Of a stretch of 42,441 nt of DNA, positions 10,229-11,736 are shown one piece after another. A program made the position numbers and the translations under genes. A model generated the notes under the pieces. It saw nothing but the letters and a program-made list of their open reading frames with translations, was not told where the DNA came from and did no database searches. The DNA is from Escherichia coli (GTDB taxonomy: Bacteria > Pseudomonadota > Gammaproteobacteria > Enterobacterales > Enterobacteriaceae): assembly GCF_003334385.1 (NCBI RefSeq), contig NZ_QOWN01000037.1. One strand, written 5' to 3'. Every line of letters begins with the position of its first letter. Position 1 is the stretch's first letter.

Positions 10229-10354
10229 ATGCAATATGCCATTGCAGGGTGGCCTGTTGCTGGCTGCCCTTCCGAATCTTTACTTGAACGAATCACCCGT
10301 AAATTACGTGACGGATGGAAAAGAGTTGAGGTCTTATTATGCGCAATGAAATAG
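10229..10354 (+). CDS. cIII: CIII (FtsH-inhibitor, CII stabiliser)
   Basis: MQYAIAGWPVAGCPSESLLERITRKLRDGWKR matches the lambda CIII N-terminal ~32 residues as recalled; AAGGAG RBS. Confidence 0.8.
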   Translation: MQYAIAGWPVAGCPSESLLERITRKLRDGWKRVEVLLCAMK

Positions 10355-10491
10355 CCATCAATCACCAGATGCTTCGTGCTGCACAGAACAAAGCAGTAAT
10401 AGCCAGATTTATTGGTGATTCCAAAATGTGGCTTGAAGCAAATAAAGCGATGAAATCAGCTATCAACCTTCCGTGGTATCGCAGGAAATGA
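10339..10491 (+). CDS. Kil-like small protein
   Basis: 50 aa (MRNEIAINHQMLRAAQNKAVIARFIGDSKMWLEANKAMKSAINLPWYRRK); position after cIII and overlap with the cIII 3' end as for lambda kil. Confidence 0.45.
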   Translation: MRNEIAINHQMLRAAQNKAVIARFIGDSKMWLEANKAMKSAINLPWYRRK

Positions 10492-10646
10492 GTTTTAAAG
10501 ATAACTGGTCAGACGAAGAATTCATTCGTCAGATGAAAGATTTAATCGGTAACGAAGGAGATATTCATGTCACTTGCAACCACAGTGAAGGAGAGCAAGT
10601 TACAGAGACGCATGTACACGCAGAAAGCTCTCTGGTATCGCCATAA
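10488..10646 (+). CDS. Small hypothetical protein (52 aa)
   Basis: ATG overlaps the kil-like stop (ATGA); MSFKDNWSDEEFIRQMKDLIGNEGDIHVTCNHSEGEQVTETHVHAESSLVSP. Confidence 0.3.
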   Translation: MSFKDNWSDEEFIRQMKDLIGNEGDIHVTCNHSEGEQVTETHVHAESSLVSP

Positions 10647-10747
10647 TGGTGACCGCGAAGGAATGCGGGTATGCCTTAATTTGTCCCGAGTCGAAGTATT
10701 AAATCAGCGTTATTTCATTGGGCCGTGTCCATTCTGAGAACAATCAT

Positions 10748-11353
10748 ATGAGCAAAGAATTTTACGCAAGACTGGCAGCTATTCAGGAGAATCTGAACGC
10801 GCCAAAGAATCAGTACAACTCATTCGGTAAATATAAATACAGAAGCTGCGAAGATATTCTTGAAGGCGTTAAGCCGCTGCTTAATGGCCTGTTTTTATCA
10901 ATCAGCGATGAAGTTGTGTTGATTGGTGATCGGTATTACGTGAAAGCCACGGCAACTATTACCGATGGCGAAAACAGTCATACGGCAACCGCACTAGCAC
11001 GAGAGGAAGAAAGCAAGAAAGGAATGGATTCTGCACAAGTTACGGGAGCTACAAGCTCTTATGCACGCAAGTATTGCCTCAATGGTTTGTTCGGCATTGA
11101 TGATGCAAAAGATGCAGATACCGACGAGCATAAACATCAGCAGAACGCAGCAGCAAAGCAATCAAAACCATCACCTACACCTGAACAGGTTCTAAAAGCA
11201 TTCACTGACGCAGCATTGCAGAAAAACACCGTAGAAGAGCTTAAACAGGCGTTCGCCAAAGCGTGGAAGATGCTCGAAGGCACACCTGAGCAGCACAAAG
11301 CGCAGGACGTTTACAACATCAGACGAGACGAATTAGAAGGAGCGGCTGCTTAA
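10748..11353 (+). CDS. erf: Erf-family single-strand annealing recombinase
   Basis: MSKEFYARLAAIQENLNAPKNQYNSFGKYKYRSCEDILEGVKPLLNGLF... closely resembles P22 Erf as recalled; the track ORF starts 10 codons upstream. Confidence 0.75.
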   Translation: MSKEFYARLAAIQENLNAPKNQYNSFGKYKYRSCEDILEGVKPLLNGLFLSISDEVVLIGDRYYVKATATITDGENSHTATALAREEESKKGMDSAQVTGATSSYARKYCLNGLFGIDDAKDADTDEHKHQQNAAAKQSKPSPTPEQVLKAFTDAALQKNTVEELKQAFAKAWKMLEGTPEQHKAQDVYNIRRDELEGAAA

Positions 11354-11736
11354 TGGCACATTCGATTACTGTAAGACTAAACAAGCCCGCAAGAGAGTTT
11401 CAGGCCGGGGAAAATATCGGATTCAACATCCGTGCTGGCGTTCAGTATTACGATCGCCAGACAAAAAAGAAAGAATGGACAAACTACAGCGCCGTTGTAT
11501 TTGCCAAGCCGGGAGCGCAAGCGGATTACTACCGTAGTGTTCTTGTTGAAGGTGGCATTGTAGAAATTACCGGAGAAAACATCAGGGTTGATGTTTATCA
11601 GGGGCAAAATGGTCAATCAATCACTCTTGAATTACTGAATGCAAAGATTGGATTTGCAACTTCAGGAAACAGCCAACAGCAGCAAAGTAGCAATCATCAA
11701 AATCATCCTGAATACGACGATTCAATTCCATTCTAA
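11353..11736 (+). CDS. SSB-like single-stranded DNA-binding protein
   Basis: 127 aa; Gln-rich linker and C-terminal acidic tail ending DDSIPF (SSB tail signature); start overlaps the erf stop (TAATG). Confidence 0.55.
   Translation: MAHSITVRLNKPAREFQAGENIGFNIRAGVQYYDRQTKKKEWTNYSAVVFAKPGAQADYYRSVLVEGGIVEITGENIRVDVYQGQNGQSITLELLNAKIGFATSGNSQQQQSSNHQNHPEYDDSIPF

Follow-up and report, generated by a model that had tools for sequence, protein, structure and literature searches.

What stands in the place of the lambda recombination genes when a lambdoid prophage carries a cIII gene that starts exactly like that of lambda, and is the resulting combination new? This question is raised by a stretch of 42,441 nucleotides of Escherichia coli DNA (contig NZ_QOWN01000037.1 of assembly GCF_003334385.1), which as a whole is called the window here. 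We read the region, at a probability of about 0.8, as the early-left (pL, N-antiterminated) operon of a lambdoid prophage at the lambda attB of E. coli that carries a standard recombination module of the HK97/HK446 type. The window covers the early half of the prophage only; N, the repressor, int and xis were all found in it, sieB is present, and attB lies beside ybhC. The module has the gene order orf52 - orf56 - erf - ssb (gp40 family, 'SSB-1b') - abc2. Its neighbours on the left are an ea10 derived from lambda and a hybrid cIII gene, and the join with the module falls within the 3' end of cIII. The features are the following.

9788..10156, + strand: ea10 homolog (DUF2528), 120/122 residues identical to lambda Ea10, PHROG 646 at 3e-70, within the lambda-derived segment.
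10180..10199, + strand: hairpin resembling a terminator, with a T-run behind it, between ea10 and cIII (tL2-type position), from a consensus scan.
10229..10354, + strand: cIII, 41-aa hybrid, PHROG 550 at 5e-20, overlapping the kil start by 16 nt.
10321..10337, no strand: mosaic junction with lambda-type DNA to the left and HK97-type DNA to the right, from blastn end points.
10339..10491, + strand: kil, HK97/HK75 type, PHROG 2055 at 1.2e-35.
10488..10646, + strand: orf52, small acidic protein with a net charge of -8, PHROG 2123 at 1e-40.
10567..10737, + strand: orf56, encoding a small basic protein and overlapping orf52 in the +1 frame, PHROG 1723 at 7e-35.
10748..11353, + strand: erf, single-strand annealing protein, Pfam ERF PF04404 at 3e-44, PHROG 155 at 1.6e-57.
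11353..11736, + strand: SSB-like protein of 127 aa, HK97 gp40 family, PHROG 44 at 1.8e-28 over residues 2-127.
11760..12056, + strand: abc2, P22-type anti-RecBCD, Pfam PF11043 (Anti-RecBCD_p2) at 4.6e-62, PHROG 656 at 1.6e-55, tblastn 6e-59.
12067..12231, + strand: DUF2737-family small ORF (HK97 gp38 / P22 orf56 type), PHROG 1117 at 4e-38.

Terminators are annotated at the equivalent place in HK75, HK97 and HK620, and an ORF of the DUF2737 type regularly follows abc2; the annotations of HK97, HK75, HK620 and HK446 place one there too. Judged by the HMM E-values, cIII, kil, erf and the 127-aa ORF lie well outside what chance would give. Papers were also searched for an SSB role of lambda Ea10, with no usable result. 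The start codon of orf52 overlaps the kil stop (ATGA) and that of the SSB-like gene the erf stop (TAATG); together with the tight packing of the genes, these overlaps fit co-translation.

Where does the lambda part end? Homology to lambda (98.6% nucleotide identity in blastn) is limited to 9604-10321 and homology to HK97 (96.1%) runs unbroken over 10337-12340, so that the junction falls within the last nine codons of cIII. This contradicts its earlier placement at 10491-10748. Going by these end points, kil is already part of the non-lambda block. A second junction is seen in other phages at about 10274, as many of them, including Sf6, CUS-3 and HK633, match only from there onward.

The hybrid nature of CIII is also visible in the protein. 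Over its first 32 residues it equals lambda CIII (32 of 33 aligned positions), while residues 33-41 (VEVLLCAMK) are of the HK97/HK75 type and stand in place of lambda residues 33-54. The 41-residue product is the same, residue for residue (41/41), as the CIII of the viable phage HK75, and PGAP annotates this gene of 126 nt as 'protease FtsH-inhibitory lysogeny factor CIII'. Kornitzer et al. reportedly placed the central amphipathic region of lambda CIII at about residues 14-37 in 1991. Kil is identical to the Kil of HK97 and HK75 (50/50) and matches lambda Kil at only 18 of 33 positions. The original prediction, in which lambda cIII and a kil-like gene had been retained, was thus right about the coordinates and the N-terminus of CIII, and wrong about a lambda origin of kil.

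For the annealing protein the case is clear. Residues 5-143 align with positions 1-146 of the 153-position ERF model PF04404, and 153 of 205 residues (74.6%) are identical to P22 Erf, which tblastn matches at 1e-98; judged by its sequence, the product of this gene is a solid member of the ERF family, as had been proposed. Its closest relatives are the Erf proteins of HK542 (100% identical) and HK97 (200/201). The similarity to P22 is uneven: the C-terminal 55 or so residues are only about 40% identical to P22 Erf, nucleotide homology to P22 across erf ends at 11208, and in its C-terminal domain (aa ~146-201, nt ~11183-11350) the protein follows the HK97 and not the P22 type. Does this domain dictate which partner gene follows? 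The HK97-type domain has gp40 downstream in 78 of 79 loci, a linkage counted on nearly identical sequences. P22-type domains, which are found on two different N-domains, have Abc1 as partner in 49 loci and SSB-1 in 31. A C-domain that dictates its partner therefore holds for the HK97 type only, and the rule is not general. The linkage of gp40 to the HK97-type domain may be mere adjacency and not co-adaptation.

The SSB-like protein is harder to place. Pfam gave no match to it even at E<=10, and TIGR00621 reached 16.4 bits, short of its cut-off of 53.95. Sequence searches of the PDB returned marginal SSB matches (E 0.04 with the single sequence, 0.37 with a profile), and tblastn of an approximate E. 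coli SSB query against the window gave a weak match (E 0.13) to which no weight is given. Since neither Pfam nor NCBIfam offered a usable match, the protein was approached through an alignment of its family, a modelled structure and searches by fold. The predicted layout is an OB fold over residues 1-105, a disordered linker rich in Q, S and N, and an acidic tip, with the C-terminus ending in EYDDSIPF. The OB-fold model has a pLDDT of 84 and bacterial SSBs as its closest fold matches, and the matches as a whole are dominated by ssDNA-binding SSB and PriB proteins; linker residues 107-126 have a pLDDT below 50.

The gp40 family repeats this architecture. It is conserved over the whole OB domain, with invariant aromatics that include F16, F24, Y33, Y45, F50 and Y60, followed by a variable, Q/P-rich linker of about 20 to 100 residues; in 34 of the 45 members, acidic residues precede a terminal [I/P]PF. 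Distant members directly follow an annealing protein, Sak4/AAA_24 in Leminorella and ERF in a metagenome contig. In hhalign the family could be aligned to HK75 SSB-1 over 21 columns only (probability 88%). A relationship to the HK620 SSB (HkaK) was rejected at a probability of 0.3%. The assignment as SSB-like is thus supported by PHROG 44, by the modelled fold and by the architecture, and not by the Pfam and TIGRFAM thresholds; of the earlier proposal the open reading frame and the DDSIPF tail stand, and formal membership in the SSB models does not. A survey from 2025 names HK97 gp40 'SSB-1b', an assignment that rests on predicted fold only (PMC12315714). No experiment on gp40-type proteins was found in the literature; their ssDNA binding, their oligomeric state and any contact between Erf and gp40 we infer.

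How is RecBCD dealt with? The original prediction saw no Gam-like inhibitor in the window, and a homolog of lambda Gam is indeed absent from it (the best tblastn hit, at E 0.25, is noise), as is P22 Abc1 by tblastn. Yet a RecBCD modulator is encoded at 11760-12056, 24 nt downstream of the end of the SSB-like gene. Its product matches PF11043 over the full length (model positions 1-97 of 97) and is identical to P22 Abc2 at 91 of 98 positions. The hijack model and the RecC-Abc2 structure come from P22 Abc2, which binds RecC and abolishes the Chi response; in the RecBCD-Abc2 structure Pro68 engages host PpiB (PMC9836394). Pro68 is kept in the protein encoded here.

That leaves the two small genes ahead of erf. 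The product of orf52 is homologous to HK75 Gp33 (46/52 identical) and to the N-terminal portion of HK97 gp42; orf56, with a separate GGAG located 7 nt upstream, is the counterpart of the C-terminal portion of gp42. The orf56 frame is kept in HK75 with conservative substitutions, and fusions of orf52 and orf56 have arisen repeatedly in phages. The position of orf52 equals that of P22 arf. The identification of orf52 as P22 Arf was rejected, with no match to PHROG 2445 and 8 of 17 residues identical in a pairwise alignment; even the fused gp42 of HK97 matches this family at no better than E 0.069. Position, size, acidity and the motif SDEEFI are nonetheless common to orf52 and Arf. AlphaFold2, run on orf52 with 11 close homologs, gave a pLDDT of 61.5 and a single helix of moderate confidence at residues 9-20. 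The proposal to look for a RecBCD inhibitor at 10488-10646 finds an echo in the literature: a 2026 preprint reports that HK75 Gp33 triggers the P2 OLD defence protein and hypothesizes that Gp33 is a new RecBCD inhibitor or manipulator. We tentatively suggest, while thinking it rather improbable, that orf52 and orf56 form part of the functional module, that orf52 could be a new RecBCD inhibitor or manipulator beside Abc2, and that the two frames may be joined in some phages as a protein of about 82 residues. A separate suggestion of the same tentative kind is that the HK97-type Erf C-domain may be co-adapted to the gp40-type SSB.

Is any of this new? HK97, HK446 and HK633 carry the same genes in the same order (gp42 - Erf - gp40 - Abc2), and gene order and about 96% nucleotide identity over 10337-12340 are common to the module and these and other phages. 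The SSB-like protein is identical to HK446 gp31 at 126 of 127 positions and to HK97 gp40 at 120 of 126; Abc2 is identical to HK97 Abc2 at 92 of 98. The differences from HK97 are small. In its reference record two extra nucleotides fuse orf52 and orf56, separate here, into gp42 (83 aa), and one extra C turns the gp40 tail DDSIPF into DDSNPILI; HK97 also has a different N-terminus of cIII and no ea10.

The block orf52-orf56-erf-ssb-abc2 behaves as a fixed unit, occurring in HK97, HK446 and HK633 and in at least 77 IMG/VR viral contigs. Among 80 loci with a gp40-type SSB in IMG/VR, the same Erf C-terminal domain lies upstream and abc2 at +407 nt in all 80, and the Erf N-domain, orf52 and orf56 are also present in 77. 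Around the block kil, cIII and ea10 vary, with kil as here in 50 of the 80. Of 5426 complete E. coli genomes, 2332 contain parts of the region. Profile searches and tblastn found no nuclease, Gam or Abc1 in the module, and across 10229-12231 no ORF matched a nuclease family in PHROG. A contiguous module with anti-RecBCD (abc2), a gp40-type SSB, erf and no nuclease corresponds to the HK75 functional type, defined as anti-RecBCD+, SSB+, nuclease- and annealing protein+ and comprising 27 phages (PMC12315714). The recombination gene set is ordinary and already catalogued; it is a standard HK97/HK446-type Rec module and no new swap.

Other lambdoid phages vary the same scheme. HK75 shares the functional composition, with an identical 41-aa hybrid CIII, an identical Kil and an Abc2 that is identical at 94 of 98 positions, but its annealing protein combines a different N-domain with a P22-like C-domain, and its SSB is a canonical bacterial-type protein of 168 aa (SSB-1), not of the gp40 type. 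P22 (arf - erf - abc1 - abc2) has the same gene order, likewise without a nuclease, and the Abc2 hijack model applies; its Erf N-domain is homologous (79% nucleotide identity), as are abc2 and the next small ORF (85%), whereas nothing in P22 corresponds to the segment 11208-11757 with the Erf C-terminal domain and the SSB-like gene; an Erf C-domain of its own and Abc1 stand there in P22. HK620 (hkaM - sak4 - ssb - abc2) has the same skeleton of cIII, kil, small ORF, annealing protein, SSB with a host-like tail, abc2 and DUF2737, and provides the experimental precedent for an SSB tail that loads an annealing protein. In HK620 the annealing protein is Sak4, which is RecA-like and not an Erf, and the SSB is HkaK ('SSB-2'). 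The Red genes of lambda (gam - bet - exo) lie at the equivalent place in the operon, after cIII and kil, and do the same overall job, RecA-independent single-strand-annealing recombination with control of RecBCD, with no recombination protein homologous to those of the module. Measured against lambda, the replacement of gam-bet-exo by an Erf-based module with an SSB-like protein is therefore borne out. While lambda inhibits RecBCD outright through Gam and brings its own exonuclease, the module described here would leave RecBCD active but reprogrammed by Abc2, and would add an SSB.

How might such a module work? From the work on P22 and HK620 we infer the following course. Abc2 would bind RecC of the host RecBCD and block the response to Chi, and the altered RecBCD would be the resection machine that a module without nuclease needs. 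The phage SSB would coat the resulting 3' single strand, and its acidic tip DDSIPF would recruit Erf and possibly host SSB-client proteins; in HK620 the SSB tail is required for Sak4 loading and for recombineering (PMC5928155). Erf would then anneal the strand to complementary ssDNA, leading to RecA-independent recombination. At the position of P22 arf, orf52 and orf56 would act as accessory factors, and orf52 may also act on RecBCD. The FtsH inhibitor cIII and the FtsZ inhibitor kil would be co-transcribed neighbours outside the recombination machinery.

Three other readings have to be weighed against this one. A lambda-type pL operon could have kept cIII and kil and exchanged only exo/bet/gam, with a junction between kil and erf and no RecBCD countermeasure. 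The 32 lambda-identical residues of CIII, an ea10 that is 98% lambda, the missing Gam homolog and the variability elsewhere of the block left of orf52, with this kil in only 50 of 80 loci, would all suit such a history. Against it, lambda homology stops at 10321 and gives way to an unbroken HK97 match over 10337-12340, Kil is entirely of the HK97 type with only 18 of 33 positions shared with lambda, and abc2 is present, so that we give this reading almost no credence. Somewhat less remote, but still improbable, is that the module lies idle in this strain as the inert remnant of a defective prophage. The window holds only the early region of the prophage, and lambdoid remnants are common in E. 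coli, as the 2332 genomes with parts of the region illustrate. However, no ORF from ea10 to abc2 is broken, and all share 96-100% identity with genes of phages that form plaques (HK542, HK446, HK75, mEp506), int, xis, the repressor and N are present, and the SSB tail that is frameshifted in the HK97 reference and in HF4s is intact here.

The third alternative concerns the 127-aa protein, which might be an OB scaffold with a mimic of the host SSB tail that titrates or redirects SSB clients (RecQ, RecJ, ExoI, RecO, PriA, the chi subunit) instead of coating DNA. Its sequence similarity to true SSBs is marginal, its N-domain of about 105 aa is short, and most of what makes it SSB-like is the linker and the DDSIPF tip. 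Among the fold matches, though, ssDNA-binding SSB and PriB proteins specifically predominate, conservation extends across the entire OB domain including the invariant aromatics, and the gp40-type gene always directly follows an annealing protein, like the proven SSB of HK620. We consider the mimic unlikely, if slightly less so than the inert remnant, and retain the standard HK97/HK446-type module with an SSB as the preferred reading.

Taken by itself, the observation matters little: it adds a further copy of a lambdoid recombination module that is common, was already present in the HK97 sequence of 2000 and was classified in 2025. It does correct the idea of Erf-type modules without a RecBCD countermeasure. 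The tail DDSIPF, intact here and not in the HK97 reference, makes this copy a better template for recombineering tests of Erf with its cognate SSB. The one live lead of the region is orf52. The pair that it forms with orf56 is compact and a candidate for the accessory functions of Erf-type modules and for those directed at RecBCD.

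Of a lambdoid prophage, the window carries the early half, with genes in the order RusA, NinB, primase/helicase, O, repressor, N and sieB, followed by the pL operon, xis and int. The lambda-type integrase gene (int, 15723-16793) adjoins ybhC, the lambda attB site, where the prophage ends. From ybhC on, ordinary E. coli chromosome makes up the right-hand ~25 kb (16900-42441); the stretch 16700-20700 matches K-12 at 100% identity, and from 21 kb onward hardly any matches turn up in phage databases. Between sieB and ea10 lies a 207-aa ORF (8984-9607), whose sole match is PHROG 1965, of unknown function (4e-83). 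The ORFs from ea10 to a DUF2737 ORF are packed head to tail on the + strand, and cIII, kil, erf and the 127-aa ORF are real genes at the coordinates originally predicted:

9788-10156, +, ea10
10180-10199, hairpin with T-run, terminator-like
10229-10354, +, cIII, AAGGAG 7 nt upstream; PHROG 550 at 5e-20
10339-10491, +, kil, 16-nt overlap with cIII; PHROG 2055 at 1e-35
10488-10646, +, orf52, ATGA overlap with the kil stop; PHROG 2123 at 1e-40
10567-10737, +, orf56, in the +1 frame with its own GGAG; PHROG 1723 at 7e-35
10748-11353, +, erf; PHROG 155 at 2e-57, Pfam ERF PF04404 at 3e-44
11353-11736, +, 127-aa ORF, TAATG overlap with the erf stop; PHROG 44 (SSB) at 2e-28
11760-12056, +, abc2; PHROG 656 at 2e-55, Pfam Anti-RecBCD_p2 PF11043 at 4.6e-62
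12067-12231, +, DUF2737 ORF

The next ORF, 12210-12710 (160-166 aa, PHROG 614), is related to HK97 gp37 and HK446 gp27 in mosaic fashion: near-identity is confined to the first 38 residues and the C-terminal end, the sequence between them diverges, and overall identity is 41%. HK446 gp27 has been described as Oad2, an inhibitor of P2 OLD defence, and the HK75 homolog (54% identical) reportedly does not block OLD (2026 preprint 10.64898/2026.07.10.737580).

The original prediction of a swapped recombination module described something real, and interpreted it correctly only in part. It had kil retained from lambda and the mosaic junction at 10491-10748, and both assignments have to be moved. In blastn, lambda identity (98.6%) is confined to 9604-10321 and HK97 identity (96.1%) is unbroken from 10337 to 12340, which puts the junction within the 3' end of cIII and makes kil part of the non-lambda block. 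Pairwise comparisons give the same picture: CIII residues 1-32 are those of lambda and the last nine (VEVLLCAMK) resemble the HK97 CIII end, while Kil agrees with HK97 Kil at 50/50 residues and with lambda Kil at only 18/33. A search with 10200-10500 found exactly the same hybrid cIII plus kil in phages HK75 and mEp506, and matches only from 10274 on in Sf6, CUS-3, HK633 and many more. Mosaic junctions flank the conserved cIII core (10274 and 10321-10337), a stretch of ~48 nt at which modules seem, from the sequences compared, to have crossed over repeatedly.

The absence of a Gam-like RecBCD inhibitor, also proposed, holds for lambda Gam, which has no homolog in the window, but a P22-type RecBCD modulator is present: abc2 starts 24 nt beyond the end of the region originally considered (10229-11736), and its product shares 91/98 residues with P22 Abc2, Pro68 among them.

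Family membership of Erf is borne out by its Pfam and PHROG matches; identity is 200/201 with HK97 Erf and 153/205 with P22 Erf. P22 is homologous over 10748-11208, which encodes the Erf N-domain, and over 11757-12209, which holds abc2 and the ORF after it. In between (11208-11757) homology is missing, P22 having a different Erf C-domain and abc1 there; what has been exchanged is therefore the C-terminal domain of Erf together with the SSB gene, 11183-11736 in the window. We surveyed 160 further loci (L094-L253) by C-domain, 80 of each type. The HK97-type C-domain always follows an Erf N-domain (80/80), with a gp40-type SSB downstream in 78 of 79 assessable loci and Abc2 at all assessable loci (79/80). 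The P22-type C-domain rides on two unrelated N-domains, of HK75 type (75) or Erf type (4), and is followed by Abc1 (49) or canonical SSB-1 (31), never gp40; Abc2 is found in 77/80. The annealing proteins are domain-shuffled. The survey also hints at a partner-specific Erf C-domain, although it falls short of proof, since the loci differ so little in sequence and the two genes lie side by side.

On whether the 127-aa protein is an SSB, the evidence divides. PHROG 44 supports the call (2e-28), but the curated sequence models do not: Pfam gave no match and TIGR00621 scored 16.4 bits, below its cut-off of 53.95. PDB sequence searches returned marginal matches only. The protein is 120/126 identical to HK97 gp40, named 'SSB-1b' from its AlphaFold 3 fold (PMC12315714). 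The gp40-type family comprises 320 database proteins at E<=0.001; the alignment of 45 shows a conserved ~100-aa domain and a Q/P-rich linker of highly variable length, and 34 of the 45 end in [I/P]PF preceded by acidic residues. Distant members, 51-62% identical, directly follow a Sak4/AAA_24 annealing protein in Leminorella (L088, 4001-4417) and an ERF protein on a metagenome contig with RdgC nearby (L091, 3021-3503), so the annealing partners of the family are of more than one kind. Given this architecture, these neighbours and the agreement with PMC12315714, we regard the 127-aa product as a divergent SSB with putative ssDNA binding. The HK97 reference gp40 itself carries one extra C near its 3' end (L001 4130-4157 versus window 11715-11736) and ends in DDSNPILI rather than the canonical DDSIPF of the window, HK446, 720R6 and most of the family; the reference phage may have a tail-less SSB, or its record a sequencing error. 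In HF4s the gene is frameshifted past residue 40.

How might these parts work together? P22 work and a RecBCD-Abc2 structure support a model in which Abc2 binds RecC and blocks the Chi response, whereupon RecBCD makes ssDNA for Erf; Abc2-bearing modules typically lack their own exonuclease (PMC9836394). HK620 shares the skeleton cIII-kil-small ORF-annealing protein-SSB-abc2, and its SSB stimulates Sak4 annealing and recombineering, for which the last six SSB residues are required (PMC5928155). The gp40-type SSB would by analogy probably cover the resected strand and load Erf and/or host SSB clients through its DDSIPF.

The module is already described and very common. Its functional type, anti-RecBCD, SSB and annealing protein without nuclease, has HK75 as prototype and comprises 27 phages (PMC12315714). 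The segment 9700-12800 matches 426 phage records; of 5426 complete E. coli genomes, 47 have the arrangement 9780-12060 at >=80% coverage and 2332 have it in part. Among 80 gp40-type loci in IMG/VR, every one has the Erf C-domain of the window upstream, with abc2 at +407 nt, and 77 also have the Erf N-domain, orf52 and orf56; kil (50), this cIII (30) and ea10 (7) vary. The conserved unit is orf52-orf56-erf-ssb-abc2.

Within it, two small ORFs overlap in different frames between kil and erf. Orf52 shares 46/52 residues with HK75 Gp33 and 44/52 with HK446 Gp33. Gp33 is reported to suffice for setting off the toxicity of P2 OLD, a defence protein, as Gam and T7 Gp5.9 also do, and has been hypothesized to be a new RecBCD inhibitor or manipulator (2026 preprint 10.64898/2026.07.10.737580). 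Orf52 shares position, the motif SDEEFI and an acidic character (net charge -8 and -11) with P22 Arf, but their profile comparison gave no significant match; the orf52 model from AlphaFold2 had too little certainty to be used. Orf56 is basic (+5.6) and kept in HK75 as an unannotated ORF, with substitutions conservative in its own frame. The 52-aa form of orf52 predominates in databases. Fused ~82-aa proteins with at least 5 different junctions also occur (HK97 gp42, P0128, P0136, P0152, P0161), in which independent indels, arisen several times, join the N-terminal part of orf52 with the C-terminal part of orf56. Two readings fit: the ORFs are both genuine genes that tolerate being fused, or translation normally yields a frameshift product. 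For a module so common and already described, it is this pair that holds the interest; beyond it, the finding carries little.
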